Shown here: piece by piece, positions 3,392 to 57,301 of the stretch | How the letters are laid out: each line of letters starts with the position of its first letter | Position numbering within the stretch: position 1 is the first letter of the stretch | NCBI GenBank assembly: GCA_964594395.1 | Contig: CAZQLW010000001.1 | Location: forward strand, 27,579 to 91,578 | Source: an uncultured Methanosarcinales archaeon | GTDB lineage: Archaea; Nanobdellota; Nanobdellia; Woesearchaeales; GW2011-AR9 | Direction of reading: 5' to 3' | Length of the DNA stretch: 64,000 bases | Translations under genes and position numbers: made by a program | Notes under the pieces: model-generated | What the model saw: the letters and a program-made list of their open reading frames with translations, nothing else | Told to the model about the DNA's origin: nothing | Database searches by the model: none

Positions 3392-3663
3392 GTGTGTTGT
3401 TTTTTGGAATATATATATTCCAGCACACAAAAGATTATATATATGTTTGTATTACTTTCTCTTAGAATTAACGTTACCAAAACACCATACCAATACCTAA
3501 TTTAAACGAAGAGAATTAACTTTTGTACATACCAAACAATCAATTTCGTTGCGAGGTTACCAAGCTCTCAACAAAAACACCCTAATTTAGTTTCTTAGAA
3601 AGTTACGTTACTATATAAAGTTTTCTATTTTTCAGAACTTACTTTTTTGATTGCATTTAACGC

Positions 3664-18203: not shown

Positions 18204-19913
18204 TTACTTCTGCAAAGCTTTCTCAATTTTCGGTAAGCTCCAACAGTTCAGGATGTTTTTCTTTTCTGCCCAACCACGTCGAGCACAAAGTACTGCTAAA
18301 GGATAATGTTCTAAACCGCTAAAATTATGAGCATCAGTACTAATCGCAACTTTACAACCATGACCAAGAGCGGATTTAACATTTTCACCATTAAGGTCCA
18401 TCCGTTTAATTGAAGAATTGATTTCTAAAAAAACATTTTGTTCTTTAGCAACAGAAAATACCTTATTTAAATTTATTTTAAGTTCAGGCCTTTCGTTAAG
18501 TAAACGATGAGTTGGATGGCCAAGAATATTTATCGGATAATTCTCTAATGCAGAACAAACCCTTTTAGTCATTTTCTCTTCAGACATTTTTGTTGCCATA
18601 TGGATAGAAGCTATTACCACATCCAACTCTTTCAACTTTTTTACTGGTAAACCTAAACTTCCATTTTTAAGAATATCGATTTCAACTCCCGAAAATACTT
18701 TAATTCCTACTTTCTTCCTTACCTTTTCAATTTCTTTCAAATAACCAACCAATCTTTTTTCATTTAATGGATGAGCAATAGTAATATCTCCAAAATGGTC
18801 GTTAAAAGAAATAAATTTAATTCCCATCTGTTCAGCTTTCTGGGCCATCTCCAAAATTGTTTTTGTACCATCACTCCAGTTACTATGATTATGAAACAGT
18901 CCTTTAACATTTTTGTTAACAATTAACTTCGGCAATTCTTTAACTAAAGCTGCTTTAATCTCACCAGTATTTTCTCTTAATTCTGGTGCAATATATTGCA
19001 TTCCTAACTTTTGATAAATGTTTTCTTCTGTTCTTCCAGCAATCCATTTCTTTGATTTTAATTTAAACAAACCGTATTCACTAAGTGTATAACCTTTCGA
19101 TAAAGCAATTTTTCTTAATTCAATATTATGTTGCTTGTTACCAATAAAATATAATAAAGCAGAACCAAACTCTTTTTCTTTAACAACTCGAAGATCTACT
19201 TGCAGGCCATTACTTAACCTGATTGAACTTCTTGTAGTTCCCTGAGAAATAACTTTCTTTACATCTGGTAGAGATACAAAAGTTTCAATAACCTTATTGG
19301 GTTTTGAAGAAGTTACCAAAAAATCTAAATCGCCAATAGTTTCTTTTCCCCTTCTAAAAGAACCAGCAACTTCAATATTTTTAACATAACTTAACTTTTT
19401 AAAATCGTTTACAATCTCGTTAACAATTGGTTGAAGATGAGCATAAAGAAACCGTTTTGGTTTAGATTTTACAAAATTTATCCCTTCAACAAAGTTGTGT
19501 TCAGTTTCTTCTCCAAACCCTTTCAGTTTGACAAGTTTTTTTTGTTTAATTGCTTTCTGAAGGTCTTTAACATTTTTAATTTTTAATTTTTTGTAAAGGT
19601 ACTTGATTTTTTTTGGTCCTAGTCCAGGAATTCTACCTAATCCCTCAATATCAATTTTAGTTTTTTTCTTTAACTTTTGGTAATACTTTAATTTTCCCGT
19701 TTCAATAATTTCTTTAATCTTTTCGGCGATATGTTTACCTACTCCGGGAATGTTTTCTAATTCGCCACGATTATAAATATCTTTAATATCTTCTGATAAT
19801 GATTCAATTGCTCTGGCAGCGTTCCGATATGCCCGAGGTTTAAATTGTACTTCTTCAAGCTCAAGAATGTTGGCAATATTGTTCAGGATTTGTGCTATCT
19901 CTAAGTTTTTCAT
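18204..19913 (-). CDS. polX: family X DNA polymerase with C-terminal PHP domain
   Basis: N-terminal Pol-beta-like 8-kDa/HhH region (IAQILNNIANILELEE...AYRNAARAIE). Nucleotidyltransferase motif GSFRRGKETIGDLDFLV. C-terminal PHP His-rich segment (HNHSNWSDG). Confidence 0.85.
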   Translation of the reverse strand: MKNLEIAQILNNIANILELEEVQFKPRAYRNAARAIESLSEDIKDIYNRGELENIPGVGKHIAEKIKEIIETGKLKYYQKLKKKTKIDIEGLGRIPGLGPKKIKYLYKKLKIKNVKDLQKAIKQKKLVKLKGFGEETEHNFVEGINFVKSKPKRFLYAHLQPIVNEIVNDFKKLSYVKNIEVAGSFRRGKETIGDLDFLVTSSKPNKVIETFVSLPDVKKVISQGTTRSSIRLSNGLQVDLRVVKEKEFGSALLYFIGNKQHNIELRKIALSKGYTLSEYGLFKLKSKKWIAGRTEENIYQKLGMQYIAPELRENTGEIKAALVKELPKLIVNKNVKGLFHNHSNWSDGTKTILEMAQKAEQMGIKFISFNDHFGDITIAHPLNEKRLVGYLKEIEKVRKKVGIKVFSGVEIDILKNGSLGLPVKKLKELDVVIASIHMATKMSEEKMTKRVCSALENYPINILGHPTHRLLNERPELKINLNKVFSVAKEQNVFLEINSSIKRMDLNGENVKSALGHGCKVAISTDAHNFSGLEHYPLAVLCARRGWAEKKNILNCWSLPKIEKALQK

Positions 19914-25079: not shown

Positions 25080-26108
25080 ATGATCTGTTTTATTGCTTTA
25101 ATCGTCTTTGGTATCCTGGGAATTTTCTCAGCTACACATAGAAAAATCGCTATTGAAGCTTTTGACTGTGTATTTCGTAGAATTACGTTAAGAAAATGTA
25201 CCACTGGATTAGATGTCAGGTTAAAAAGTAAAATTGCTGGTAAACTCTTACTTAAAACTCCAAAATTAGGAAAATTAATCTATAAAAATTTTGAAATATT
25301 TTCCTGGCTATTTACAGTTTTATTAATCCTGAGCATAGTTTGGACTGGGATTTCAGGTTACAATTATTACGTTTACGGAAATTGTAACGGCCCTAGTGTA
25401 GAAGACCAGGGCGGATTATGTTTATTTGATCCTACCGGAAGTAATGCAGAAATTTCCACTTGTGGTAATGAAGATATTGCTCAACAAACTATCGGTTTTG
25501 AACCTACTTTGAATAATGTTGATTTATCATTATTTCCAACATATAAACCTCAAGAAAGTAAAGATAAATTAGTTTATGTGGGCTGTTACACTTGTGTTAA
25601 TACTAGAAAAGTTAATCCCACGATTAACAAACTTGTCTCTGAGAATAAAGAAACTTTAGAGTTTACTTTTATCCACCTTCTTTTAACTAAAGAACAGGAA
25701 CATATCTCTAAAATTGAAAATTGTTTATGGGAAAAGAGTGAAGGTGACTTTTGGCGGTTCCATAATGCTTTAATGCAATTTTCTATTGATAAAGTTAAAG
25801 ATAAAAATAATGTTGTAAAACTTTTAGATGTTATCAAAGAAACAGATAAAGAAGATATTTTATCATGTTCAGAATCAAAAGAAGCTGATGAATTGTTAAA
25901 TTTACAATTGAACGAAATTAAAAAGATGAACCTGGAAGGCACACCAACAATTTTTGTTAATGATCAAGTATTCATTGGACCAAAACCGTTACGTGTTTAT
26001 GAGAAACAATTAAGTACAGATATTGATTGGTTCGGCATGGGGTTAATAGGTTTAGGCGTTCTTATTGTATTAGTTATGATTTATTTTGCTGTATTTAAGA
26101 GGGATTAA
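25080..26108 (+). CDS. membrane-anchored thioredoxin-fold (DsbA-like) thiol:disulfide oxidoreductase
   Basis: Two N-terminal TMs with Cys pairs, a CxxC-like CYTC active-site candidate, a DsbA-like GTPTIFVND cis-Pro loop, and a C-terminal TM. Confidence 0.5.
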   Translation: MICFIALIVFGILGIFSATHRKIAIEAFDCVFRRITLRKCTTGLDVRLKSKIAGKLLLKTPKLGKLIYKNFEIFSWLFTVLLILSIVWTGISGYNYYVYGNCNGPSVEDQGGLCLFDPTGSNAEISTCGNEDIAQQTIGFEPTLNNVDLSLFPTYKPQESKDKLVYVGCYTCVNTRKVNPTINKLVSENKETLEFTFIHLLLTKEQEHISKIENCLWEKSEGDFWRFHNALMQFSIDKVKDKNNVVKLLDVIKETDKEDILSCSESKEADELLNLQLNEIKKMNLEGTPTIFVNDQVFIGPKPLRVYEKQLSTDIDWFGMGLIGLGVLIVLVMIYFAVFKRD

Positions 26109-26109
26109 A

Positions 26110-27369
26110 ATGTTAGAATCAATCTTCGGAAAGAAAATAGATTTCAATGAACTAAGAAAAGATTTTACTATTCTAAATAGAACTATTAACGAGAAACCAA
26201 TAATCTATTTCGATAATGCTTGCATGTCATTAAGGCCGAAACAAGTTTTGAAAGTAATGAACGAGTATTATAACAAGTTTCCCGGCTGTGCTGGAAGAAG
26301 TAACCACACAATCAGCGAGGAAGTTAATAAAGCGGTTAATAATGCTAGAGAGAAAGTTGCTAAATTTTTCGGTGCAAAACCAGAAACTGTTGTTTTTACT
26401 AAAAATTGTACAGAAGCAATTAATTTGGTTGCAAATGCTTTTCCGTTTGATAATGGTGATGTTGTTTTAACTTCAGATAAAGAGCACAATTCAAACTTGC
26501 TACCTTGGTTAAAATTACAAAAAGAATGGAAAATTAAACATGACATTATTGAATCAGGACCAAAGAACGAGTTTTCTATTGATAATTTGATTACTAAACT
26601 AAACGAACATAAAGGTAAAGTTAAATTGGTAAGTATTGTTTATACCTCTAATTTGGATGGCGTTACTAATCCGGTGAAAGATATTATTAGAATCTGTCAT
26701 AAACATAAAGTTAAAGTCTTGCTGGACTGTGCACAAGCTGCATTACATCACGAGATTAATGTTAAAAAAATTGATGCAGACTTTATCGCTGTATCTGCTC
26801 ATAAAATCCTGGGTCCGAACGGTGTTGGGGCTTTGATCAGCACAAAAGAAAATTTGGAAACGCTTAAACAGTTCTTGGTTGGCGGTGAAACAGTATCTGA
26901 TTCAACTTATGAAGACTATACTCCGGAAAAGATTCCTGAAAAGTTTGAAGCTGGATTACAAAATTATCCGGGAATAATTGGCTTTGGTGAAGCAGTAAAA
27001 TATTTAGAAAATATTACCATGAAAAATGTTCAGAAACATCTTTTGCATTTGAACGAGATTGCTACTACAGGACTGTCTGAAATTGAAAATGTTCAAATTC
27101 TTGGTCCGAAAGAAGCAAGTAAACGGTCAGGTATAGTATCGTTCATTATTAAAGACAAAAATATTCATGAAATGTCATTATTGCTTAACAACACTTACAA
27201 TATTATGGTTAGGTCAGGAGCACATTGTGTTCATTCTTGGTTTAACCGGGAAGAGAATGAAAAGTCTGTTTTCAAAGATGGAACTGTTAGGGCAAGTTTT
27301 TCTTTCTACAATACCGAAGAAGAAGTTAACGAGTTTGTTAAAGCGGTAAAAGAAATTAGTGAGTTATGA
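26110..27369 (+). CDS. cysteine desulfurase / class V aminotransferase (SufS/CsdA-like)
   Basis: PLP-lysine motif SAHKILGPNGVGAL and fold-type I arrangement. Start at the Met following the upstream stop. Confidence 0.8.
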   Translation: MLESIFGKKIDFNELRKDFTILNRTINEKPIIYFDNACMSLRPKQVLKVMNEYYNKFPGCAGRSNHTISEEVNKAVNNAREKVAKFFGAKPETVVFTKNCTEAINLVANAFPFDNGDVVLTSDKEHNSNLLPWLKLQKEWKIKHDIIESGPKNEFSIDNLITKLNEHKGKVKLVSIVYTSNLDGVTNPVKDIIRICHKHKVKVLLDCAQAALHHEINVKKIDADFIAVSAHKILGPNGVGALISTKENLETLKQFLVGGETVSDSTYEDYTPEKIPEKFEAGLQNYPGIIGFGEAVKYLENITMKNVQKHLLHLNEIATTGLSEIENVQILGPKEASKRSGIVSFIIKDKNIHEMSLLLNNTYNIMVRSGAHCVHSWFNREENEKSVFKDGTVRASFSFYNTEEEVNEFVKAVKEISEL

Positions 27370-27423: not shown

Positions 27424-27612
27424 ATGGCAGTTACACTAGAAAAACTTGATAAGGATATTAAAGAGATTAAATTAGAATTAAATAGAATATCTCATCTTCT
27501 CAAAGAAGATTTTGAGTTGAGTAAAGAAGTAAAAGAAGAGTTAAAGAAGGCCAGAGAAGAACCTTTGTCTGAGTATGTTGACCACAAAGAAGTTTTAAAA
27601 GAATTCACATGA
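27424..27612 (+). CDS. putative antitoxin (small coiled-coil protein)
   Basis: 62-aa ORF whose stop overlaps the RelE-like start (ATGA). Confidence 0.45.
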   Translation: MAVTLEKLDKDIKEIKLELNRISHLLKEDFELSKEVKEELKKAREEPLSEYVDHKEVLKEFT

Positions 27613-27872
27613 TGCCATACTCAATTAAATGGCGTAAGAAATCTCTTGATCAATTAAGGAAATTACCTAAATCTGTTTCTAAAAGAATTGTTATTAAGAT
27701 TAATTTAGCAAGAGATAATCCTAAACGTTTTTTTGAAAAACTTGTTAATGATCCAGGATATAAGATTAGGGCTGGAGATTATCGGGCAGTGGTTGATATT
27801 ATTGAAGAAAAAAAAATAATTGCAATAAGGTTTGTAGGGCATCGCAGGAATATTTATCAACGCCATTTATAA
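27609..27872 (+). CDS. RelE/ParE-family toxin
   Basis: 87-aa basic protein. C-terminal YKIRAGDYRAVVDIIEEKKIIAIRFVGHRRNIY matches the RelE/StbE pattern (R.GDYR.I..I.......I..I.HR...Y). Confidence 0.7.
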   Translation: MMPYSIKWRKKSLDQLRKLPKSVSKRIVIKINLARDNPKRFFEKLVNDPGYKIRAGDYRAVVDIIEEKKIIAIRFVGHRRNIYQRHL

Positions 27873-31807: not shown

Positions 31808-31916
31808 CTATATTACATAAATGTCGCACACATTACAAAAATGTAACATCTCTTTAATCAAAACATTTATATACTTATATTACATAAATGTCAGATATGT
31901 TACAAAAATGTAGTAT
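31808..31916 (+). repeat. tandem direct duplication (about 42 nt x2, 66-nt period) of the promoter/5'-end region of the MNT gene
   Basis: CTATATTACATAAATGTCGCACACATTACAAAAATGTAACAT versus CTTATATTACATAAATGTCAGATATGTTACAAAAATGTAGTAT. The second copy contains the MNT start codon. The first copy opens a short 30-codon ORF. Confidence 0.5.
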
Positions 31917-32433
31917 TTTGCAAGTTGCAGGTGTTTTCTTTAATGAGCCGACTAAAGACCATTATTTGACAGAAATCAGCCAGAAAGCTAATCTGGCCCA
32001 TACTGCGGTTAAGAAACATCTTTCAGAACTTAAAAAATTATCTATCATAACAGAACATCATGAAAAAAAAGGCAAAAGAACTTTTCCGATTTACAAAGCA
32101 AACATTAACGATAAAGAATACAAAAAACAAAAGAGAACTTCTAATTTAATCCAGTTACAAGAATCGAAATTAATTGAGTTTCTAAAAGACAATTTAATGC
32201 CAAATTCAATTGTTCTTTTTGGAAGTTATCAAAAAGGAGAAGATATTGAAGATAGTGACATAGATTTATTTATTGAATGTAAAAAAGAAGAAATAAACCT
32301 CAATAAATTTAAAAAGTTACTAAACAGAAACATTCAATTGCATTTTAAAGATAATTTTAAGACATATCCTCAAGATTTAAAGAATAATATTATTAATGGT
32401 TTAATTTTAGTAGGCTATTTGGAGGGTTATTAA
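31888..32433 (+). CDS. minimal nucleotidyltransferase (MNT) with N-terminal wHTH
   Basis: Pol-beta-superfamily NTase motif LFGSYQKGEDIEDSDIDLFIE (GS...DxD) preceded by an HTH-like segment. Confidence 0.7.
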   Translation: MSDMLQKCSILQVAGVFFNEPTKDHYLTEISQKANLAHTAVKKHLSELKKLSIITEHHEKKGKRTFPIYKANINDKEYKKQKRTSNLIQLQESKLIEFLKDNLMPNSIVLFGSYQKGEDIEDSDIDLFIECKKEEINLNKFKKLLNRNIQLHFKDNFKTYPQDLKNNIINGLILVGYLEGY

Positions 32434-32834
32434 TGATTATTAACACGCAACCAGATAAAGCAAAAGCAAAGTCTTTAACTGAGATGGCTAAAATCACATT
32501 AGAACGTTTAAAAGAAACTAATAAAGAAAAATATCCCTCTAATACTTTAACAGATTATTATGATATTATTAGAAAATTAATGGAGGCTTTAAATGCCTTA
32601 GATGGTGTTAAAATAAAAGGGGAAGGGGCACATTTTCAAATAATTGATTATGTTTGTGATAAATACAAACTTCATATTTCTACTAAAGAGTTTATTCAAG
32701 ATTTAAGAGATTATAGGAACAGAATCTCTTACGAGGGATTTAACGTTAAAGATAGTTTTATTGAATCTAATGCCTCTAAGATAGAAAAGATTATTAGTTT
32801 GTTATTAAAATTAATAGATGAAAAAATAAATTAA
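32433..32834 (+). CDS. HEPN-domain protein, partner of MNT
   Basis: All-helical 133-aa ORF immediately downstream with TAATG overlap, in typical HEPN/MNT operon architecture. An R-rich segment (RDYRNRISYEG) sits at the expected position of the HEPN motif, but the conserved His is not evident. Confidence 0.5.
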   Translation: MIINTQPDKAKAKSLTEMAKITLERLKETNKEKYPSNTLTDYYDIIRKLMEALNALDGVKIKGEGAHFQIIDYVCDKYKLHISTKEFIQDLRDYRNRISYEGFNVKDSFIESNASKIEKIISLLLKLIDEKIN

Positions 32835-32849
32835 ACTTTTAAAATAAAA

Positions 32850-35147
32850 ATGATGGTGTTGACAGATAAAAAGTGTTTTGAGTACGAAACTTTCCATGAA
32901 GGAGAGAATAAGATCCTTAAGGTTTCTTTAGAAAAATGTACTTTCCCTCCATCGATTGAGTATAGTGAATTATGTATGGCCAAAATAATCGATGCCTTAT
33001 TAGAAGTTACGGGAGTAACAATCATTACACTTTCACAATTAAGAGAATATGAATACGATTATCCGCAGGTTAAACTTCTTCTTGAACTGGCTTTACTTTA
33101 CAAGAAAATCAATAAAGATGAACGGTACGCTTATTCTGCTTTAGTTACTGACCCTTTACATGAACGGTACATCCGAGGAAGTTATGCAGAATTTCAACGT
33201 ATAATTTCTAAAAGGTTAAAAGAAGATCCGTTCGCAGCTTTTGTTGAACTGAAACGTCTTGAACGGAGAGAAAAAACTAAACTTAACAATCTTATTGATC
33301 AACGGCACGCCACTTCTCAACAAAAGTTTGTTCAAATCATGGTTGACGTTATCCATACAATTGAACAGTTAACAATTATTAAGTTTTTAATGCCGCACAC
33401 TAAAGATTATAAGTTAGGGGAGAGAACAATTTATGGGATAGTTTTACACCCGACAACTAAGCCCGACTTTATGTATACCAAGCTAGTCATCGCTTACCCA
33501 GAAGGTAATTTGAAAGAAAGTTATAATTTCGGGTCTGATAGTGATAAGTGTGAAGTTAACATTTTTGATTTTAATGATAACATTAAAACCCTTTACCATC
33601 TTACTCCGCCAGAATTTAAGTATGACGAAGAAGTGTACGAACTTCTTGATGATGCTAAACGAATCATGTCTGAACATAAGCCAACACGTGAAGAATTTGT
33701 TGACCCTGAACGGATGAGAGAAGTTTTTTTTAACATTGGTAAGGATTTGCTTAACGATTTACTTGAACATAAAAAAATGAAACTTTCTGATGATAAAGTT
33801 GAAGATCTGGCCAGAGCATTATTACGTTACACTGTTGGATTTGGATTAATTGAACTTCTCCTTTCCGATCCGAAAGTTCAGGACGTTAACATTAACGCGC
33901 CTAACGGAGAATTGCCAATTTTTATTGTTCACCAGGATTATGGTGATTGTTACACTAACATTTATCCTACTCGGGAAGAAGTTGATAGTTGGGCAACAAA
34001 ACTGAGATTAATTAGTGGTAGACCTTTAGACGAAGCTAATCCCATCTTGGATACAGAACTTAAAGTTGAAGGGTTCAGTTCAAGGGTTTCAGCAATTACT
34101 GCACCGTTAAGTCCGAACGGTCTTGGATATTCGTTCAGGCGACATAGAGATCACCCTTGGACTTTTCCGTTATATATGCAACCAAAAATCAGGTACATGA
34201 ATGCACTTGGTGCTGGTTTGATAAATTTCCTGATTGATAATAATGCAACTATCCTTGTTGCTGGTACTCGTTCCTCTGGGAAAAGTAGTCTACTTGGCAG
34301 TTTTCTTGTAGAAATGTCCAGGCGGTCAAGGATTATTACAATTGAAGATACTTTTGAACTTCCACAAGAATCGTTACGTATTTTAGGCTATAACATTGAA
34401 TCTTTAAAAGTTGCTTCTGCTTTATCATCTCCGGGAAGTGAAGTTGATCCTTCTATAGGAATTAGAAGTACCCTGCGTTTAGGCGATTCAGCAATTTACG
34501 TGGGTGAAGTTAGAAGTACTGAAGCTATTGCCCTTTTTGAAGCAATGCGGGTCGGTGCTGCTGCAAACGTTGTTGCGGGAACGATTCATGCAGATTCGCC
34601 TTATGGGGTTTATGACCGGGTTGTTAACGATATTGGTGTTCCAAAAACCAGTTTTAAAGCGATTGACATTATTGTTGTTACTAATCCAGTAATTTCGGGA
34701 CTGAAAAAGTATAAACGAATCCTTAAAATTACTGAAGTTAGAAAACTCTGGGATGAAGATCCGTTGAAAGAGAACGCTTTCGTAGATTTAATGGTTTATG
34801 ATCCAAAAACTGACCAGTTGGAAATTACTGACGATTTGATTAACGGCAATTCTGACATCTTGAAACGGATGGCCGGTAAAGTTAAAGAGTTTGCTGGTGA
34901 TTGGGATGCTGTCTGGAATAATATCTTGTTAAGGGGCGACTGTAAAATGGCAGTGGTAGAGTTATTTAACGAGACTAAAGACGAATCTATTTTGGAAGCA
35001 GAGTTTGTTACTAAAGCTAACGATATGTTTCATTTAATTTCTAACCGGATTAGAGAACAAACAGGTAAAATGGATAATAAACGAATCCTGTTTGAGTATA
35101 AAGAATGGTTAAATAAGGAAGTTAAGAAGAAAGACGAGTTTGAGTGA
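32850..35147 (+). CDS. FlaI/VirB11/GspE-family secretion ATPase with long N-terminal extension
   Basis: Walker A VAGTRSSGKSSLLGS followed by IEDTFEL, Asp/His boxes, and FlaI-type N-terminal domain (DPKVQDVNINAPNG). Confidence 0.8.
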   Translation: MMVLTDKKCFEYETFHEGENKILKVSLEKCTFPPSIEYSELCMAKIIDALLEVTGVTIITLSQLREYEYDYPQVKLLLELALLYKKINKDERYAYSALVTDPLHERYIRGSYAEFQRIISKRLKEDPFAAFVELKRLERREKTKLNNLIDQRHATSQQKFVQIMVDVIHTIEQLTIIKFLMPHTKDYKLGERTIYGIVLHPTTKPDFMYTKLVIAYPEGNLKESYNFGSDSDKCEVNIFDFNDNIKTLYHLTPPEFKYDEEVYELLDDAKRIMSEHKPTREEFVDPERMREVFFNIGKDLLNDLLEHKKMKLSDDKVEDLARALLRYTVGFGLIELLLSDPKVQDVNINAPNGELPIFIVHQDYGDCYTNIYPTREEVDSWATKLRLISGRPLDEANPILDTELKVEGFSSRVSAITAPLSPNGLGYSFRRHRDHPWTFPLYMQPKIRYMNALGAGLINFLIDNNATILVAGTRSSGKSSLLGSFLVEMSRRSRIITIEDTFELPQESLRILGYNIESLKVASALSSPGSEVDPSIGIRSTLRLGDSAIYVGEVRSTEAIALFEAMRVGAAANVVAGTIHADSPYGVYDRVVNDIGVPKTSFKAIDIIVVTNPVISGLKKYKRILKITEVRKLWDEDPLKENAFVDLMVYDPKTDQLEITDDLINGNSDILKRMAGKVKEFAGDWDAVWNNILLRGDCKMAVVELFNETKDESILEAEFVTKANDMFHLISNRIREQTGKMDNKRILFEYKEWLNKEVKKKDEFE

Positions 35148-35223: not shown

Positions 35224-36816
35224 ATGGTAGATAAAGGTACTTGTTTAAGGTATTATAAACGTGAAGATGTCCAGAAAGCGATGGTTGAACATGCTCAAAA
35301 TAAAGAGCTTGGTGTTCGTTATGGCGATGGTTTTGGTAAACGGCCAGACGTTTTAATGTATCCTCAGGATGTTTTAGAGTTAGCTAAACAGGGGGTAACT
35401 TCTTTTCATGTTAGTGAAGAAGTTTGGGAAAATCCGTTAATTTTAAACAGTGATATGAACAGAAGAGAACAAGACGAGTTACGTATTGGTTGGGATTTAG
35501 TTCTTGACATTGATTGTCCTGATTGGGAAATATCTAAGTTAACTACCTATTTGTTTATCAAAGCTTTAAAAGAAAATGGGATTAAAGAAATTTCTTGCAA
35601 GTTTTCTGGAAATAAGGGGTTCCATATCGGTGTTCCGTTTGAAGTGTTTCCTAATGAAGTTGTTGGAAAAAAAACAAAAGACATTTTTCCTGAAGGACCA
35701 AAAAAAGTTGCTCAATATTTGTTAAACACTATCACTACTCGTTATGTTCAAGTAAAAGATAACAAAATATTTTTTGATAATGATTATTCTTTTAGTTTAT
35801 CTGAATTGAAAGAAAAGTTTGGTGAACAGCAATTTTTAATTAACCAGTGTGCTAGTTGTCAAAAAGAAATAAAAAAAATTAAAGAAGAAGTGATAGAATT
35901 TATTTGTCCTAAATGTGAGGAGAGGGTAGTTGCTGACCAGGAATTTCTTAAATGTAAAAAATGTAATATCTTGATGAACAAAATGGAACAAACAAAATCT
36001 TTATGTCCCTGCGGTTCAAATGAATACAATTCTATTTTTGACCCTTTATCTATTATTGAAGTTGATACTATTTTAATTTCATCACGTCATTTGTATCGGA
36101 TGCCATACTCGTTACACGAAAAATCTGGATTGGCAAGTTTACCAATAATTCCTAAACAAGTGATGGATTTTGAAAAAAGTATGGCTCACCCTGATAAAAT
36201 TGTAGTTTCTGGAATTAAGTTTCTTGATAGGAACGTTTTGAAAGAATCTGCAAGGATGTTGTTAGTTAACGCTCTTGATTTTGAAGTCAAGATTGAAGAG
36301 GATCGAGATTTTGGTAAAGAAGTTAAGTTTGAAGAACTAAAAATTGAAAGTCCGATTAATGAAGAGTTTTTTCCACCATGTATTAAAAAAGTTCTTGATT
36401 CTGGCTTGGAAGATGGTAAGAAACGGGCAATTTTCATTTTAACAAATTTTCTTGGCAAGATTGGTTGGAACAAGAAAGAGATTGAAAATTATCTTTTAAA
36501 ATGGAACAAAGAAAAGAATTCTGGGAATTTACGTGACAATTATATTGTTAGTCAGATGAAAAGTTTTACTGCTGGTGCAAAATTACCGCCGAACTGTGAT
36601 AATGAAGCTTATTATACGGGAATTGGTATCTGTTTACCTGATACTTTATGTAAAAAAATTAAAAATCCAGTAAATTATACCATTATCAGATGGAAAAGAC
36701 ATTTAAGGGATAGAGAAGAAGATAATCGTCAAAGCAGTAAAAGTAAAACTAAAGAAAATAAAAGTGAAGATAATAAGAATTCTGAAAAAAATAAAAAAGA
36801 AGAAAAATTTGAGTAA
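35224..36816 (+). CDS. priS: DNA primase small subunit PriS fused to a PriL-CTD-like FeS domain
   Basis: PriS catalytic motifs DLVLDIDCPD and SGNKGFHIGVPF, and a Zn-ribbon (CxxC...CxxC). The C-terminal FFPPCIKKVL...PNC...ICLPDTLC resembles the PriL C-terminal 4Fe-4S domain. Confidence 0.75.
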   Translation: MVDKGTCLRYYKREDVQKAMVEHAQNKELGVRYGDGFGKRPDVLMYPQDVLELAKQGVTSFHVSEEVWENPLILNSDMNRREQDELRIGWDLVLDIDCPDWEISKLTTYLFIKALKENGIKEISCKFSGNKGFHIGVPFEVFPNEVVGKKTKDIFPEGPKKVAQYLLNTITTRYVQVKDNKIFFDNDYSFSLSELKEKFGEQQFLINQCASCQKEIKKIKEEVIEFICPKCEERVVADQEFLKCKKCNILMNKMEQTKSLCPCGSNEYNSIFDPLSIIEVDTILISSRHLYRMPYSLHEKSGLASLPIIPKQVMDFEKSMAHPDKIVVSGIKFLDRNVLKESARMLLVNALDFEVKIEEDRDFGKEVKFEELKIESPINEEFFPPCIKKVLDSGLEDGKKRAIFILTNFLGKIGWNKKEIENYLLKWNKEKNSGNLRDNYIVSQMKSFTAGAKLPPNCDNEAYYTGIGICLPDTLCKKIKNPVNYTIIRWKRHLRDREEDNRQSSKSKTKENKSEDNKNSEKNKKEEKFE

Positions 36817-38672: not shown

Positions 38673-39590
38673 ATGAAACAGAAAATAATAATTGATACTG
38701 ACCCCGGACATGATGATGCATTAGCAATCATGTTAGCAGTAAAATCAAACTTGTTTAATATTGAAGCAATAACTACCGTAGCAGGAAACTCTACCATTGA
38801 AAATACTACTAGGAATGCTAGATATGTCATGAAACTTTTGAATAAAGAAGATATTCCTGTTTATTCAGGTGCAGATAAACCTTTGAAAAGAGATTTAGTT
38901 CAAGCAGTAGTGCACGGCAAGTCCGGATTAGACGGAATTGATCCTATAAACGAAGCCAAAATAACTGGTAATGCAGTAGAAAAGATAATTGAAATCGTTA
39001 AAAATAATCCTAATGAAATTACGTTAGTGACGTTAGGACCGTTAACTAACGTTTCTCAAGCAATAATTGAAGCACCAGAAGTGATGAAACTTGTTAAAGA
39101 GATTGTTATTATGGGTGGTGCAATAAAAGTTCCAGGAAACAAAAATAGAGTAGCAGAATTTAATATCTTTGTGGACCCTGATGCTGCAGACATTATTTTT
39201 AAATTTTCGATTAAGAAAACTCTTGTCCCTTTAGATGCTTGTAACCATGTTAAATTATTTTTGGAAGATTTTGAAAAAATTGAAAATGTAACTTTGCGTG
39301 AACCAATTATTAAGATGATAAAGCCTTACATTGACAATATTGAAAAAGATGTTGGTGTTAAAGCTGCATTAATGTATGACCCTTTAACAGTTTATGCATT
39401 AATTAATCCCGGTGCTTGTAAAAAGAAGGGTTACAATCTTGTTGTTGAAACTAAAGGTGAGCATACTTTTGGGATGACTGTAGCAGAATTAAGGAAAGTA
39501 AATGATAGTTTTCCAAACATTACAGTAATAGAAATGATTAGTGAAAAAGAATTTAAAAAAGATTTTGTTAAATATTTATCCGCCGCTTAG
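38673..39590 (+). CDS. inosine-uridine-preferring nucleoside hydrolase
   Basis: N-terminal IIIDTDPGHDDALAI matches the DxDxxxDD signature of IU-NH. Confidence 0.85.
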   Translation: MKQKIIIDTDPGHDDALAIMLAVKSNLFNIEAITTVAGNSTIENTTRNARYVMKLLNKEDIPVYSGADKPLKRDLVQAVVHGKSGLDGIDPINEAKITGNAVEKIIEIVKNNPNEITLVTLGPLTNVSQAIIEAPEVMKLVKEIVIMGGAIKVPGNKNRVAEFNIFVDPDAADIIFKFSIKKTLVPLDACNHVKLFLEDFEKIENVTLREPIIKMIKPYIDNIEKDVGVKAALMYDPLTVYALINPGACKKKGYNLVVETKGEHTFGMTVAELRKVNDSFPNITVIEMISEKEFKKDFVKYLSAA

Positions 39591-40133
39591 GAATGCTACA
39601 GCAAAAATGGCGATCAGGAAAATTATTACTAAACCCATCACTTTTGGATGGAATAATGTTGCTCTGGCACTGCCCATGAAGTCTTTCTGAGCAACTCCTC
39701 CTTCATCAGTAATGGTAACATTACCATCTCCGTCAAAAGCGGCATCTGTAAATGATTGGCCTAAAACTGTACCTAAAGATGCAACCAGAAGAACTATACC
39801 TACACCGATAAGTGTCCATTGTAATGTTTTATCGCCAAGTGCACCCCTGATATCTGATTCTTGGGCACCAAAAATTTGGAAAATCAGTAAGATCAATATA
39901 AAGAAAATAATAATTACTGTAAACCAAGGGACCATGAAATTTAGGACGCTAACTAATGTATCAGATAATAAGACCATAAATGCTATTACTACTGCAACGA
40001 TAGCATTAATTTGTAATGATTCACCTAACGCTTTAGTTTTTTGTAACACTGCAAAGACGAGTGCAAAAACTAATAATACTGGAAAAATAACGTCAAACGA
40101 TTTCAATAAACTTAAATCTAATACAGTCGCCAT
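39576..40133 (-). CDS. 4-TM membrane protein, paralog 1 of a tandem triplet
   Basis: Shares the FLLVFxIVFAVLQKTxxLG N-terminal helix with the two genes downstream. Confidence 0.45.
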   Translation of the reverse strand: MATVLDLSLLKSFDVIFPVLLVFALVFAVLQKTKALGESLQINAIVAVVIAFMVLLSDTLVSVLNFMVPWFTVIIIFFILILLIFQIFGAQESDIRGALGDKTLQWTLIGVGIVLLVASLGTVLGQSFTDAAFDGDGNVTITDEGGVAQKDFMGSARATLFHPKVMGLVIIFLIAIFAVAFLSGG

Positions 40134-40136
40134 TAT

Positions 40137-40718
40137 TTATTTTTTCTCCACTAGTTTACCTAGTCCTTTTCCTAAATCTTTTAATGCATCAATACCTTTC
40201 CCTTCTCCTGGTTCTTTAGTAATGAACCAGACAATGACTCCAAAGACAAGGATGATAATCATTAATTCAGTAACCTCGGCCGACCACCAATAAAATATGT
40301 TAGATGGACCTACCCAAAGGTTTAATGCTGAGCCGAAAATGTAAACTACAAAAACTATTGCTATTAAAGCAATGATTGGTGATGCGGATGCTGCAAAATC
40401 AGCTCCAAAAATACCCATTAATAATAATAACATGATTGCTGCTACTGCAACTAAAGAAATGCTTGGTAAAGTTTCGTTAAGAACCATTACGGGATCATAA
40501 CCGAGCGGATAATAACCAATCATGTGAGGGACAACAAACATTAATCCTAGCACAAGTGCTACCACCACATTAAAATTCTTTTTTCCATCACCTAAAATAT
40601 TTGTTTTTTGTAGAACTGCAAAAACAATTACGAATACTAACAGAAATGGTAATAAAAAATCCATCACCCCATAAGTTTGAAAATAACCTGCCAGATTAGC
40701 AAAACTTGTACCTACCAT
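40137..40718 (-). CDS. 4-TM membrane protein, paralog 2
   Basis: DFLLPFLLVFVIVFAVLQKTNILG, paralogous to the neighbours. Confidence 0.45.
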   Translation of the reverse strand: MVGTSFANLAGYFQTYGVMDFLLPFLLVFVIVFAVLQKTNILGDGKKNFNVVVALVLGLMFVVPHMIGYYPLGYDPVMVLNETLPSISLVAVAAIMLLLLMGIFGADFAASASPIIALIAIVFVVYIFGSALNLWVGPSNIFYWWSAEVTELMIIILVFGVIVWFITKEPGEGKGIDALKDLGKGLGKLVEKK

Positions 40719-40768: not shown

Positions 40769-41362
40769 TTATTCTTCTTTCTTTTTTTCTTTTTTTGTGT
40801 TTGGATCCTTAATAATGTAAAACATAAATCCACTAATAACTAAAAGGAAAATGATTGATGTTGCCCATTGAGCATCCCAATTTTGAAATACTGAAAAGAT
40901 AATTTCTAAAACTGAATAAGATTCTCCGGGATTAGTTTCTATTTTAATAGCGTTCATAAAAATTGCGACAACACCGATGAACATAAAAATGATGAATGCT
41001 TTTGTCCATCCAGGAATTTTATCTATTCCTACAAATTCTTGATCACTGAAAAACACTCCTACTAACATTAAGAAACAAATTGCCAATATTAATAGTAAAA
41101 CTACGTTTGCCATTACTTCGTTAATAACTGATACTAGTTGTGTTGAAGCAATAACAAGGAACGACATGATAAACGCAACCATAGAATTAAGGTTTTTCTT
41201 GGTTAACTCTCTCCCATCAATTTTTTCTACCCCTAAAATTTTAGTCTTTTCAAGGATAGCAAAAACAATTGTAAATACTAATAAGAAAGGTAAGATTATG
41301 TCATAGACTCCTAAATCACCTAAAAATTCTATCACTCCACGAAATCCGCTTGCTTCTACCAT
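40769..41362 (-). CDS. 4-TM membrane protein, paralog 3
   Basis: DIILPFLLVFTIVFAILEKTKILG, paralogous to the neighbours. Confidence 0.45.
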   Translation of the reverse strand: MVEASGFRGVIEFLGDLGVYDIILPFLLVFTIVFAILEKTKILGVEKIDGRELTKKNLNSMVAFIMSFLVIASTQLVSVINEVMANVVLLLILAICFLMLVGVFFSDQEFVGIDKIPGWTKAFIIFMFIGVVAIFMNAIKIETNPGESYSVLEIIFSVFQNWDAQWATSIIFLLVISGFMFYIIKDPNTKKEKKKEE

Positions 41363-46296: not shown

Positions 46297-47820
46297 ATGG
46301 CAAAAAAATTAAAGTTGGATGAAAGTAAACTAAACAAACTTAAAGATTTATTAGAAAAAGGGATCAATCCGTACCCTTACACTTACAATCAAGCAAATCA
46401 TGCTAATGATATTAATGTAAAATATTCTAGCTTAAAAAAAGAAGAACATACTAAAGATGTAGTTTCTGTTGCTGGAAGAGTAATGTTAAAAAGAGTTATG
46501 GGTAAAGCTAGCTTTTTTCATCTTCAAGATCAGTCTGGAAGAGTGCAACTTTACTTATCTAAAGACCTTCTAGAAAATTATAAAATTTTTGCTAAAAAAG
46601 TTGATATCGGCGATATTATTGGTGTGGAAGGAAAAATTTTCAAAACGAGAATGGGCGAAGTTACTATTGAAGTTAGTTCTGCAGAAATATTATGCAAGTC
46701 AGTAATGATGTTGCCTGAAAAGTACCACGGTTTGAAAGATATTGAATTAAGATACAGACAAAGGTACGTTGATTTGTTCATGAGTCCAGATACAAAAAAA
46801 GTTTTTTTAAACAGAACAAAGATGATTAAAGTTATCCGTGAATATTTTGACCAGAAAGATTTTTTAGAAGCAGAAACTCCACTTTTACAAACAGTTTATG
46901 GTGGTGCAAACGCTCGTCCGTTTGAAACGCATATTAATGCTTGGGACATGAAAATGTTTTTATCAATCTCGCCAGAACTTTATCTTAAACGATTACTTGT
47001 TGGCGGTTTTGAAAAAGTTTACACTATCTGTAAAAATTTTAGGAACGAAGATGTTGACCCTACTCATAACCCAGAATTTACGATGTTAGAAGTTTATGAA
47101 GCTTACGTTGATTATCGGACGATGATGCAATATTTAGAAGAAGTGATTGAAAAATGTTGTTTAGCAATTAATGGATCAACAAAAGTCAATCAAACATATC
47201 GTGGTGAAAAAGTTGTAGTTGACTTTAAAGCACCTTGGAAAAGGTTATCGATGATTGATGCAATTAAAAAGTATGCTAAGATTGATGTTTCCAAAATGAC
47301 TGAGAAACATATTAAAGAAGTTGTTGACAGTCATAAGATCGATTATGAAGGTAAATTTAATTGGGGTCTGGGAGTGCAATTATTATTTGAAGAATTGGTA
47401 GAAGATAAACTTGTCCAGCCAGTACATATCATTGACCACCCTAAAGAATCAACTCCACTTTGTAAACCTCATCCTAAAGATGATCGGTTAATTGAAAGGT
47501 TTGAATCGTTTTGTTTAGGGATGGAACTTAGTAACGCTTATTCAGAATTGAATGATCCTGTTTTACAAAGGAAATTGTTAGAAGATCAAGCGGAACAATT
47601 AAGGGCCGGTGCTGATGAAGCTCATCCGATGGATGAAGATTTTGTTAATGCGATGGAATATGGAATGCCACCTGCTGGCGGGTTAGGGTTTGGCGTTGAT
47701 CGAATTGTAGTTATTCTTACTAGTCAGGATTCTATTCGAGATGTAATCTTTTTTCCTACAGTAAAACCTATTTTAGACGACGAAGATAAAGATAAAAAAA
47801 AGAAAAGTAAGAAAAAATAG
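46297..47820 (+). CDS. lysS: lysyl-tRNA synthetase, class II
   Basis: N-terminal OB anticodon-binding domain. Class II motif 2 region FESFCLGMELSNAYSELNDP. Motif 3 GMPPAGGLGFGVDRIVVILT. Confidence 0.85.
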   Translation: MAKKLKLDESKLNKLKDLLEKGINPYPYTYNQANHANDINVKYSSLKKEEHTKDVVSVAGRVMLKRVMGKASFFHLQDQSGRVQLYLSKDLLENYKIFAKKVDIGDIIGVEGKIFKTRMGEVTIEVSSAEILCKSVMMLPEKYHGLKDIELRYRQRYVDLFMSPDTKKVFLNRTKMIKVIREYFDQKDFLEAETPLLQTVYGGANARPFETHINAWDMKMFLSISPELYLKRLLVGGFEKVYTICKNFRNEDVDPTHNPEFTMLEVYEAYVDYRTMMQYLEEVIEKCCLAINGSTKVNQTYRGEKVVVDFKAPWKRLSMIDAIKKYAKIDVSKMTEKHIKEVVDSHKIDYEGKFNWGLGVQLLFEELVEDKLVQPVHIIDHPKESTPLCKPHPKDDRLIERFESFCLGMELSNAYSELNDPVLQRKLLEDQAEQLRAGADEAHPMDEDFVNAMEYGMPPAGGLGFGVDRIVVILTSQDSIRDVIFFPTVKPILDDEDKDKKKKSKKK

Positions 47821-53737: not shown

Positions 53738-56700
53738 ATGAAAAAAATCATTGTTGTAAGTTTAATTGTGTTCTGCTTGTTGTTAAGCAATATTGCTTTG
53801 GCTGAAGAAGTAGCTGAAGAAAGTTCTTGTACTGGATTCTGGGGAAAAGTAAGTTGTGTGCTTTTCGGAGACCCGGTTAAGAAAGATCAAGCTAAACAAG
53901 CTCTTGCTGGTCAAGCAGGAAGAATGAGAGATGTTCAAACTCGTGATTCTGCTCCTGAAGTTGAAGAGCTTGAAGATGTAAAAGAAGTACCTGATGCAAA
54001 AATAATAACTTTACCTGAAAAAGAAGAAATTAAATGTGTCGATACTGACGGTGGAAGAAATTTTGAAGTTAAAGGTCGGATAAAAGGCGCAGATCCAAAA
54101 AATCCTGATCAAGAAATGAATGAAGAAGACAGATGTTCTTCTGATACCAGAATTATTGAATTTGAATGTAAAGATGATTCTTTAATTACTTGGAACGGTT
54201 ACGATTGTCCTAATGATGGTGTTTGTCGTGATGGTGCTTGTGTTGAACGTGAAGTTGAAATTCTTCCAGCAACTAATGAAGAAGAAAAAGAAATGCTTCC
54301 TGCAACTAATGATGAAGAAAGTGTTCGAGAAGTAGAAGAAAAAGTTGTTGTTGAAGAGAAAAAAGTAATCTGTAGAGATACTGATGGTGGTTATAATGTT
54401 GACAAAAAAGGGACTATTACTGGCCTGAACATTGATAATAATGAAGTGACTTATACCGATTTTTGCCGAACTTCTCAAAGTGAAACAAGGCTTGATTCCT
54501 GTAGCGGTGCTCGTTGTAGAATTAAAGAATGGGGTTGTACAAACAATATTGTTGGTTCAAACGTTTTATCATGTAAATATGGTTGTGGGGATGGTGCTTG
54601 TTTAGCTGCTAGTAGAAGTACTGGTAGTGCTGTTGAAGAACCAGTTGTTGAACCTATTGAAGAAAAAACGTTAGACTGTACAGATTCTGACCGGGGCCAA
54701 AATATTTATTTGAAAGGTGAAACTTTTAAGCCTGGTGAAGGAACTTTAAAAAATACAAAGGGATTATATTTTGTTGATACTGCACGCGGAAGAACTTGGT
54801 CTGATGCTTGTCAATTAAAAACTGAAACTGGTTATTCAAGCATTGATGAGGGTAGGTGTAGTGCCGGTGTTGATTGTTATGTAATAGAATTTTCTTGTAA
54901 CGCTGACAGTATTAGAAAAGCTTGTCCTAACGGTTGTGTTGATGGTGCTTGTTTAAAAACTTCTCGAACTGTTGTTGTTGAGAAAGAAGCTGAAGAAGTT
55001 GAAACCGTTTTTGAAGCGAAAGAAACTAGATGTGCTGACGGTAAAGATAATGATAATGATAACAAGATTGACTGTTTTGATGCTGATTGTTCTCCTGCTG
55101 CTGGAGAAATTTATCAAGCCGGTGATGATTGTACTTTAACTAATGATGTACCTACTTGCTGTTTATATCATAGTAGAAAAGCAGGAACTTTTGTTGAATC
55201 TTTCGATACTGAATCAATGTGTCTTGGTGCTGGAAGATTCCCAGTAATTAATGAACGAGTTTGTGAAAGAATGCTTGAACAGAAAGGATATGTTTACATT
55301 GAAGATGAGGAATTAGAATTAGAAGTTGTTGAAGTAGAAGTGTCTGAAACCAGTGGTAGTAATTATGAAAAGTATAAAGAAGTTTTATCTTCTTGTGAAA
55401 GAGAAGGAAATATTTTTGATCACGTAACCGATACTTGTTTAGAATCTTGTCCGCGAGGAACAAAACGTGTTGCATGGGGTCCTGGAAAAGCACTTTTTAG
55501 TTGTCTCCCTGAAGAATCTCCTGGCTGTACTGATACCGATGAAGTAGAAAGAGAGTATCAAAAATATTTCCATGTTAATTATGAAGTTAAAGGCACAACT
55601 ACTGGTATTAATGTAAAAACTGGTGAATTTGGCAGTACGACCGATTTCTGTTCTGATGAAAATACCATTAGAGAATTCTTTTGTTCATATCACGGCCCTG
55701 ATAAATATTTAACCAGTACTGGTCATGGTCATACCTGTCCAAATGGTGGTGTTTGTGAGGATGGTGCTTGTCTTCCTGGAACTGAAGTTGAAGATTCTGA
55801 TTTACCTCCTGGATTAGAAGAATTACCTCCTGGATTGGCTAAAAAAGATAAAACTCCTCCGGGCTGGGAAAAAGGCGAAAAATCTGGTTGGGAAGAAGTT
55901 ACTGAAGTAACTGAAGAAGCAGCAGAACCTTACGCTGATGACTGTAACGGTTGTGAAAGTAATGGTAAATGTTTACCTTTTGGAACTCGGAAAGTTGTTG
56001 ACGAAGTTGCTAGTTTTTGTGATTTAGAAGGGAGATGGGCTAGCCAAGCTTCTTTAAGTGCATCATGTCAAAACGATTACGAATGTCAAACTAACGAGTG
56101 TAGTAACGGTCAGTGTGAAGATCTTGCTAAGAAGTTAGAAGAAACTGAGAACGCTTTGAATAAGTTGTTAGATTTTGTAAAGAAATTCTTTGGCGTTGAA
56201 GAAGAAACTTTTGTCATTGAAGAAGATTTCGGGATTATTGAGTATGGCGCAACTAAAGAAGATTCCACTGGTGATTTTAAGATGTTGAATAATCCTAGTG
56301 TTGGTTATGAAGGGTATTACAATAATCTTTACGTACTTGTTCAGGATCATGAAAAAGATATTAACGAAAAAGTTTTTATTGGACAACTTTTAGAAGACTT
56401 GGATGAACTCGAACTTCAAGATATGAACGAGTTTGGTCAACATTTCTATTGTACTGATGATAATTATGATCAGTATGTATGTACTTGGTTCAGTGGAGAC
56501 ATTTTTGTAGCTCTAATCATCAATAATTTTGAAGAATTTATTGATTTGGAAGGCATGGAACAATCTTTTGAAGATATGTTATTAGCTTACTTGGAGAAAT
56601 TCCCTTCTTCAATAACTTTAAACATTGAAGATTTCAGTGATGTTGAAAAGGAAGAGATTATGCCTGAAGTAGAAGTTGAGGAAGAAGAGGAAGTGATGAG

Positions 56701-57301
56701 CCTTCTAAATGCTATTAAGTATCGGTTGTTTGAAGGAGATAAAGCAAAAATAGGTTATCATCTTCAATTTTATAATGAAAATGGTGTAGTTGCTGCTTTC
56801 GGAATAAATAAAGTAATTGATGAAGAAACTTTAGAAGTTGAATTGTCTGGGAAAGATTATGGTGATTCATTTAAAACCGTTAATGTGGGAGACGTTGTGG
56901 AATTGGTTACTGATGATGAAAGTGAAACTTATTCTATTTATGTTGATACCATCTCTTCATATAATCCCGGTAATGCTGTTGTTGATGTTGCAATTAATTC
57001 AGATTCTGGCGTGGTGAAAAATAGATTATTTGTGGATGATCAGAAGAAAATTGGCTATCATTTACAATTTTATGATCAGTCAGCAGCAGTTGCTGCATTT
57101 GGGGCTAATAATATTCTTGATGCAGAAACCTTAGAGATTGAATTAAGTGGTAAAGAATACGATGATAAAATCATGGATGTTGAAATGGGAGATACAGTAG
57201 AACTAATGACTAGTAATGAAAATGAAAACTATTTTTTATCAATTGAGCGGTTTGGTGATAATATTGTTGATTTAGCAATTCGTAAAGAAACTATTGAATA
57301 A
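53738..57301 (+). CDS. giant secreted Cys-rich surface protein with repeated CxDxDGGxN...C-P-N-G-x-C-x-DGAC modules and C-terminal tandem roughly 100-aa repeats
   Basis: Signal peptide. At least five repeats of the ...CPNDGVCRDGACV / CPNGCVDGACL / CPNGGVCEDGACL module. Two near-identical C-terminal repeats (KIGYHLQFY...). Confidence 0.6.
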   Translation: MKKIIVVSLIVFCLLLSNIALAEEVAEESSCTGFWGKVSCVLFGDPVKKDQAKQALAGQAGRMRDVQTRDSAPEVEELEDVKEVPDAKIITLPEKEEIKCVDTDGGRNFEVKGRIKGADPKNPDQEMNEEDRCSSDTRIIEFECKDDSLITWNGYDCPNDGVCRDGACVEREVEILPATNEEEKEMLPATNDEESVREVEEKVVVEEKKVICRDTDGGYNVDKKGTITGLNIDNNEVTYTDFCRTSQSETRLDSCSGARCRIKEWGCTNNIVGSNVLSCKYGCGDGACLAASRSTGSAVEEPVVEPIEEKTLDCTDSDRGQNIYLKGETFKPGEGTLKNTKGLYFVDTARGRTWSDACQLKTETGYSSIDEGRCSAGVDCYVIEFSCNADSIRKACPNGCVDGACLKTSRTVVVEKEAEEVETVFEAKETRCADGKDNDNDNKIDCFDADCSPAAGEIYQAGDDCTLTNDVPTCCLYHSRKAGTFVESFDTESMCLGAGRFPVINERVCERMLEQKGYVYIEDEELELEVVEVEVSETSGSNYEKYKEVLSSCEREGNIFDHVTDTCLESCPRGTKRVAWGPGKALFSCLPEESPGCTDTDEVEREYQKYFHVNYEVKGTTTGINVKTGEFGSTTDFCSDENTIREFFCSYHGPDKYLTSTGHGHTCPNGGVCEDGACLPGTEVEDSDLPPGLEELPPGLAKKDKTPPGWEKGEKSGWEEVTEVTEEAAEPYADDCNGCESNGKCLPFGTRKVVDEVASFCDLEGRWASQASLSASCQNDYECQTNECSNGQCEDLAKKLEETENALNKLLDFVKKFFGVEEETFVIEEDFGIIEYGATKEDSTGDFKMLNNPSVGYEGYYNNLYVLVQDHEKDINEKVFIGQLLEDLDELELQDMNEFGQHFYCTDDNYDQYVCTWFSGDIFVALIINNFEEFIDLEGMEQSFEDMLLAYLEKFPSSITLNIEDFSDVEKEEIMPEVEVEEEEEVMSLLNAIKYRLFEGDKAKIGYHLQFYNENGVVAAFGINKVIDEETLEVELSGKDYGDSFKTVNVGDVVELVTDDESETYSIYVDTISSYNPGNAVVDVAINSDSGVVKNRLFVDDQKKIGYHLQFYDQSAAVAAFGANNILDAETLEIELSGKEYDDKIMDVEMGDTVELMTSNENENYFLSIERFGDNIVDLAIRKETIE

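Follow-up and report, generated by a model that had tools for sequence, protein, structure and literature searches.

Does a single gene in this archaeal DNA encode both the catalytic and the initiation module of a primase, and to which lineage does such a gene point? The question is raised by a 530-amino-acid (aa) open reading frame (ORF) at positions 35224-36816 of a 64,000-nucleotide (nt) stretch of contig CAZQLW010000001.1, which is called the window below. An earlier note, made from the letters alone, had proposed that this ORF fuses the catalytic primase subunit PriS to the C-terminal domain (CTD) of the large subunit PriL, and had taken the fusion as support for assigning the contig to the DPANN archaea. 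We conclude with high confidence that the protein is a single-chain fused PriS-PriL(CTD) replicative-type DNA primase of a Woesearchaeota/Nanoarchaeia-type DPANN organism. The fusion, its distribution and the biochemistry of one member have already been published, and little is new here beyond an insertion with eight cysteines in the catalytic domain.

Two primase modules in one reading frame

The gene and its parts are laid out as follows (AEP, archaeo-eukaryotic primase; pLDDT, predicted local distance difference test; AF2, AlphaFold2), each with the evidence that defines it.

35224..36816, plus strand: complete fused PriS-PriL(CTD) primase gene including the stop codon (ORF list; identical protein in public collections, P0001)
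35224..35736, plus strand: PriS/AEP catalytic domain, first part (aa 1-171), holding motifs I and II (PF01896, AF2, Foldseek)
35497..35514, plus strand: motif I hhhDhD, LVLDID (aa 92-97; conservation in 80 sequences)
35605..35625, plus strand: motif II sxH, SGNKGFH (aa 128-134, with GFH at 132-134; conservation in 80 sequences)
35737..36048, plus strand: lineage-specific insertion (aa 172-275), three short strands and a helix followed by an eight-cysteine module (80-homolog alignment)
36049..36288, plus strand: PriS/AEP domain, second part (aa 276-355), with motif III and SRHLYRMPYSLHEKSG (conservation, family profile)
36289..36336, plus strand: flexible inter-domain linker (aa 356-371; AF2 pLDDT <50, low conservation)
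36337..36714, plus strand: PriL C-terminal [4Fe-4S]-type domain (aa 372-497; PriL profiles, cysteine pattern, CTD model)
36715..36813, plus strand: non-conserved C-terminal tail rich in Lys, Glu, Ser and Asn (aa 498-530; gaps 23-68%, conservation ~0.1)

The ORF runs intact from ATG to stop codon. A search of 5.8 billion proteins gave 4643 homologs at E<=1e-3 among 8000 candidates scored; most of the best 120 cover more than 90% of the query, the best being near full length, and the identical protein with the same neighbours is present on at least 20 contigs, the four places shown coming from four different metagenome samples. A chance ORF is ruled out by the number of homologs, the near-full-length matches and the recurrence of the identical protein in several samples. 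We likewise rejected a frameshift or misassembly as the source of the fusion, given that thousands of homologs are built the same way and that independent assemblies contain the identical protein.

Both modules, the PriS catalytic domain and the PriL-CTD, lie in one uninterrupted frame, an architecture shared by the full-length homologs and the one that the earlier note had predicted. The motifs quoted in that note sit where they were expected, in columns that are invariant or near-invariant in an alignment of 80 homologs, the basis of all conservation statements made here: DIDCPD at aa 95-100 (nt 35506-35523), SGNKGFHIGVPF at aa 128-139 (nt 35605-35640), FFPPCIKKVL at aa 382-391 (nt 36367-36396), PNC at aa 456-458 (nt 36589-36597) and ICLPDTLC at aa 469-476 (nt 36628-36651). 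The N-terminal domain (NTD) of PriL is absent, with PriL models aligning only from about position 180-230 onward. An AlphaFold2 model of the whole protein has a mean pLDDT of 84.8, and the confidence falls along the C-terminal tail of ~33 residues. Between the two modules, aa 356-371 combine pLDDT below 50 with low conservation, and this segment is therefore read as a flexible tether.

The catalytic half carries the three motifs of the RRM-like sheet by which AEPs, NEQ395 of Nanoarchaeum equitans among them, are defined (I hhhDhD/E, II sxH, III hD/E; PMC10250227). Motif I supplies two predicted metal ligands, D95, at least 90% conserved, and D97, which like the C98 that follows it is invariant. 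S128, G129, K131, G132 and H134 of motif II are invariant, as is D281 of motif III (V280-D281, nt 36061-36066), after which the stretch SRHLYRMPYSLHEKSG (aa 287-302, nt 36082-36129) contributes the invariant R288, H289, R292, S296 and K300; in the family profile, residues 317-347 of human Pri1 align with aa 290-320. The single sequence scores marginally against PF01896 (DNA_primase_S; 27.6 bits against a gathering score of 26.8, E=4.3e-6, aa 98-308) and matches TIGR00335 (PriS) at E=1.5e-6, while PriS NCBIfam models are matched by 61-62 of the 80 family members. Confidence in the AlphaFold2 model is mostly 85-97 across aa 1-171, and Foldseek relates the whole model to Prim-PolC, Pyrococcus PriS (1g71, 1v33, 9f26_A), LigD polymerase domains and Pri1 of human and yeast (E 1e-6 to 1e-3 overall; 1e-6 to 1e-4 for Prim-PolC, Pyrococcus PriS and human Pri1). 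Some orthologs, P0072 (920 aa) and P0075 (680 aa), carry an intein (PF14528/PF14890), which in P0072 is ~440 aa long and sits exactly at the motif-II serine equivalent to S128. Placement in essential active-site motifs is usual for inteins.

The whole-model search returned matches to the catalytic domain only, and the CTD was therefore modelled separately (aa 368-500; pLDDT 90.2, predicted template modelling score 0.85). Five NCBIfam PriL models match within aa 338-516 (E 1.3e-10 to 1.1e-6), always at the C-terminal third of the model, NF002588 aligning aa 375-516 with model positions 220-356 of 360 at E=1.3e-10; scores fall far below the full-length cut-offs, as expected where the CTD alone is present. 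Matched individually, 78 of the 80 homologs hit PriL models and two hit PriX models. The family profile aligns with Pyrococcus abyssi PriL (9f26_B, E=1.1e-5) in two blocks, the FPPC and PPNC..C.PD..C..NP stretches. The earlier claim of a C-terminal PriL domain resembling the [4Fe-4S] type is thus borne out by profile matches and by four conserved cysteines, C386 (nt 36379-36381) and C458 (nt 36595-36597), both invariant, and C470 (nt 36631-36633) and C476 (nt 36649-36651), both at least 90% conserved, which would hold a [4Fe-4S] cluster if they act as their positions predict. Aa 372-497 have the PriL-CTD fold, of which photolyase/cryptochrome proteins are distant structural neighbours, and fit the archaeal PriL-CTD layout of a helical subdomain, a short cysteine-bearing linker and a final helix (PMC2852410), with the four cysteines placed accordingly, two in the helical subdomain and two in the linker ahead of the final helix. 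On helix 2, 14-18 residues past the first cysteine, K400, R401 and F404 are invariant; the yeast counterparts of this patch are R355/K363. A cysteine desulfurase gene also lies in the window (26086-27369), which is not specific evidence for Fe-S binding.

The relatives point to the same lineage as the architecture. Named homologs, among the matches listed, come from metagenome-assembled genomes (MAGs) of Candidatus Woesearchaeota, Nanoarchaeota or Nanoarchaeia, and 20 loci from GTDB species genomes, at 40-80% identity, bear mostly the same names; GC content is about 30%. Raymann et al. (2014, PMC3914693) extended the PriS-PriL(CTD) fusion to other nanosized archaea, crediting Iyer et al. (2005) for N. 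equitans, and Dombrowski et al. (2020, PMC7414124) described it as a synapomorphy of Undinarchaeota and DPANN cluster 2, cluster 1 keeping separate genes. As judged from the named homologs and this published distribution, the organism belongs to DPANN cluster 2, in agreement with the DPANN assignment first made from the letters. The fused gene thereby serves as a lineage marker for Undinarchaeota or DPANN cluster 2, here of a Woesearchaeota-like organism, and for annotation it identifies the most likely replicative primase on the contig.

Two side observations concern the related loci. Five of them (L003, L004, L006, L017 and L019) carry the fused primase in records titled 'uncultured Methanosarcinales archaeon', titles that conflict with the primase type and with other records and are probably coarse or incorrect. 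In the MAG SI075_bin52 the primase occurs twice, once at full length and once as a partial copy (aa 1-255, 80% identity) where a contig ends (L001, L013), which may reflect strain heterogeneity, bin contamination or duplication.

Several results weigh against a fused replicative primase. The best whole-model Foldseek matches are to mycobacterial repair Prim-PolC, not to PriS. Comparison with PriS and PriL profile models succeeded for PF01896 and for the NCBIfam PriL models but not for PF04104, which at 20.3 bits falls below its gathering score of 22.4; the PriL match of the single sequence against PDB sequences is weak (phmmer, E 8e-4), and the top Foldseek matches of the CTD model, to PriX and to the yeast Fe-S domain, have non-significant E values of 0.2-2. 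The interval from motif I to motif II (D97-S128) forms a single helix with only C98 and C125 and has no Cys/His cluster. The likeness to NEQ395 (AAR39242.1) is drawn from architecture, cysteine spacing and published statements. Finally, the search for other primases or a standalone PriL covered the 64-kb window, where a six-frame scan with the family profile hidden Markov model (HMM) found no second PriS/PriL-like ORF fragment of at least 40 aa.

The structural ranking could be taken to mean that the protein is a repair or translesion primase-polymerase, a LigD/Prim-PolC-like AEP, and not a replicative primase. The top whole-model matches are indeed Mycobacterium smegmatis Prim-PolC (E 1.3e-6) and LigD polymerase domains, PF21686 LigD_Prim-Pol and TIGR02778 are matched weakly, and the same window encodes PolX, a family X DNA polymerase that is full length and includes a PHP domain (18204-19913, minus strand; NF006375 461.8 bits, cut-off 426). 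The LigD models nevertheless stay below threshold where PF01896 passes its gathering score, and no Ku or ligase gene is adjacent. The catalytic domain is moreover attached to a PriL-CTD, the initiation module of replicative primases, which is not known as a feature of the polymerases of non-homologous end joining. The studied ortholog-type enzyme, NEQ395, is a 393-aa monomer with a [4Fe-4S] cluster that synthesises RNA primers de novo with high activity (Schneider, Bergsch & Lipps 2023, PMC10250227), and its genome encodes no other primase (PMC10250227). A repair role in place of a replicative one is, in our judgement, very unlikely. That the CTD is instead a cluster-free, PriX-like helical bundle, or that its cysteines bind zinc and not [4Fe-4S], is hardly credible, as PriX has no Fe-S cluster (PMC10250227), the four cysteines here match the NEQ395 ligands in order and spacing and align with the cysteine motifs of P. 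abyssi PriL, and PriL models score far better than PriX models across the family.

The eight-cysteine insertion

The earlier note had also assigned a Zn ribbon to the protein. A cysteine element is real, but it is larger than a ribbon of that kind: a ~100-aa insertion between motifs II and III, found in part of the family, with four cysteine pairs (C209/C212, C228/C231, C244/C247 and C261/C263), and it is not the canonical PriS zinc knuckle. In solved structures the canonical knuckle or stem lies between motifs I and II, and here it appears to be missing. A zinc motif is present in almost all solved AEPs, and a 2015 review leaves its function unresolved (PMC4434180); the motif is not discussed in the NEQ395 paper (PMC10250227). 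An eight-cysteine insertion in a catalytic domain that apparently has no knuckle is not described in the fused-primase literature that we surveyed.

The insertion, with all eight cysteines, is present in 44 of the 80 aligned sequences; in the remaining 36 a short cysteine-free segment takes its place. In a rough neighbour-joining tree built from the non-insertion columns, short forms are nested among long forms in several places. This patchy pattern is not trustworthy enough for a single origin of the insertion to be read from the tree; one gain followed by losses may underlie it, and so may tree error. Similarity to the double Zn-ribbon proteins of the HVO_2753/PRK14890 type is sub-threshold only (E 4e-4 to 0.01). 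A phmmer search with the insertion alone against 1.84 billion representatives returned 13 proteins, one of which, P0037, was already among the family homologs; 11 of the 12 new matches are members or fragments of the same primase family and the remaining one, a repetitive protein, is spurious, so that no donor of the zinc module outside the primase family was found among those representatives.

The insertion probably comprises two zinc ribbons, and it probably acts as a structural or single-stranded-DNA-contacting zinc module. More speculatively, it would probably bind two Zn ions and may touch the template. A bolder proposal is that it is a newly acquired template-recognition double zinc ribbon, one that contacts single-stranded DNA and sets or changes initiation-site specificity, functionally like the zinc-binding domain of DnaG/T7 primase. 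We think this rather unlikely. If it were true, the patchy presence of the insertion would mark lineages with different priming rules. Natural pairs of enzymes with and without the zinc module could cleanly test the role of the zinc element in archaeo-eukaryotic primases.

The genomic neighbourhood

The window is chromosomal and of housekeeping character. It encodes class I and class II aminoacyl-tRNA synthetases (11569-14382 and 46297-47820), FtsZ (2288-3430, minus strand), SepF, a glycosyltransferase, an M50 protease, a Ser/Thr kinase and endonuclease V. Downstream of the primase lie genes for a HAD hydrolase, an M20 peptidase and a nucleoside hydrolase. Scans for tRNA genes and for Rfam families at gathering threshold found none in the 64-kb window.

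The FlaI-like ATPase and HEPN/MNT module that had been noted upstream are there, the HEPN part with faint support. Immediately upstream is a 765-aa T2SSE ATPase (32850-35147), for which FlaI is the best-scoring model (E=3e-35; the score is far below the equivalog cut-off). Before it come the MNT gene, encoding a winged helix-turn-helix nucleotidyltransferase (31888-32433, plus strand; PADLOC PDC-M05 component A, E 1e-11), and a 133-aa ORF (32433-32834, plus strand; PADLOC PDC-M05B, E=7e-4) for which the HEPN call is only faint (Pfam PF05168, E=0.15). The two overlap by one base and match the candidate defence system PDC-M05. For the primase itself PADLOC gave no match, and a defence role was set aside. 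None of 10 neighbouring proteins was found by tblastn beside the primase in 20 related loci from other MAGs, and the adjacency to the ATPase and MNT genes is accordingly regarded as incidental; a functional link between the primase and these genes was rejected, the synteny not being kept.

These surroundings also bear on the idea that the gene is a mobile-element replicase, of plasmid or virus origin and like PolpTN2 of the Thermococcus plasmid pTN2, that has integrated into the chromosome. PriS/PriL-like fusions do occur on archaeal plasmids (PMC3973330), a PHROG 'primase' family matches aa 79-145, and a toxin-antitoxin-like pair (the MNT and HEPN-like genes) and a ParE-like gene lie nearby. 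The PHROG match, however, covers motifs I-II only, out of a profile of 972 positions, and Raymann et al. (PMC3914693) report that the pTN2 fusion does not resemble the primases of nanosized archaea in sequence. Pfam scans of genes up to ~10 kb away in both directions found no integrase, capsid or helicase, several of the ORFs there matching no Pfam family; the flanking genes that are annotated have housekeeping functions, and thousands of family members share the same architecture. An integrated mobile replicase is extremely unlikely, and we keep to a resident, replicative-type primase.

Other features of the window are recorded here. Three tandem paralogous membrane proteins of 185-197 aa (39576-40133, 40137-40718 and 40769-41362, minus strand) share an N-terminal motif, ..FPVLLVFALVFAVLQKTKALG.., with variants, and have no Pfam family in the precomputed table for identical loci. 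A cassette at about 27424-27872 (plus strand; L021 2201-2649) consists of a 62-aa ORF and, after it, a gene for a ParE_toxin-family protein of 87 aa and is probably a toxin-antitoxin pair. Five long ORFs have no Pfam match at E<=1e-4: 53738-57301 (plus strand, 1187 aa), 61116-62918 (600 aa), 58637-60202 (521 aa), 7751-9220 (minus strand, 489 aa) and 6310-7773 (minus strand, 487 aa).

A proposed single-chain mechanism and known counterparts of the enzyme

A mechanism can be proposed from the homology to N. equitans NEQ395 and to heterodimeric PriS/PriL. The N-terminal AEP domain would bind two divalent metal ions through D95, D97 and D281, and the elongating nucleoside triphosphate would be bound by the SGNKGFH and RH...H.K motifs. 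The PriL-CTD, tethered by the flexible linker, would use the basic and aromatic patch of helix 2 (K400, R401, F404) to keep the template and the initiating 5'-triphosphate nucleotide in place at the active site, an arrangement that would allow the first dinucleotide to form; retained on the 5' end of the primer, the CTD would then limit primer length to about 10 nt. The predicted [4Fe-4S] cluster held by C386, C458, C470 and C476 would stabilise the CTD, in a structural or regulatory capacity. Covalent fusion would replace the docking of the PriL-NTD onto PriS, and the NTD would be dispensable, and absent, because the two modules are covalently linked. The ~100-aa insertion would occupy the site where other PriS proteins carry unrelated accessory domains. 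By the same homology, the enzyme may be the only primase of its genome. Monomeric primases of this kind are attractive minimal models for the eukaryotic enzyme.

Heterodimeric PriS-PriL primases (P. abyssi 9f26, Sulfolobus solfataricus 1zt2/5of3, human 4rr2) share with this protein the catalytic fold and motifs I-III, the Fe-S PriL-CTD fold with its cysteine pattern and probably also the way of initiating, with the CTD providing the initiation site. They differ in that both functions are found here on one polypeptide that lacks the PriL NTD and apparently also the zinc knuckle/stem that is canonical between motifs I and II, and in which the cysteine-rich insertion, or a short helical stretch in the short variants, replaces the PriS accessory domain. 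PriX of Sulfolobus (5of3_C, 4wyh) is a separate subunit without Fe-S cysteines, whereas the domain here is fused and has all four. PolpTN2 (PMC3973330) resembles our protein in joining a PriS-like to a PriL-CTD-like domain in one chain, but it is plasmid-borne and of independent origin (PMC3914693), unlike the chromosomal gene described here. For the insertion, the nearest counterparts are the HVO_2753/PRK14890-type proteins (6skf_Az, 9fny_A1), with whose CxxC pairs three of the four cysteine pairs align; those proteins are free-standing and ~60 aa long, in contrast to a module embedded in a primase.

The closest comparison is with NEQ395, likewise a cellular enzyme in a chromosomal context. 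Its preferred template triplets have T in the middle, and its primers end at about 9 nt; supplied in trans, the domains of that enzyme fail to complement each other, and its cluster is dispensable in vitro; proteases cut preferentially at the end of the inter-domain linker, whose length alters activity (all PMC10250227). Both proteins are single chains with an N-terminal PriS domain, a linker and a four-cysteine PriL-CTD, without the PriL N-terminal domain; the cysteines are spaced 75/12/8 in NEQ395 (verified ligands C289/C364/C376/C384) and 72/12/6 here, and a patch after the first cysteine reads R301/R303/F306 there and K400/R401/F404 here. At 393 aa, NEQ395 has the length of the family's short forms, against 530 aa here, the excess being the eight-cysteine insertion and the K/E-rich tail. 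Its linker is modelled as a long helix, while aa 356-371 here are predicted to be disordered, and the host here is a Woesearchaeota-type lineage of roughly 30% GC. Across these differences, the 530-aa protein has every testable architectural feature of the DPANN fused primase (NEQ395-type) family.

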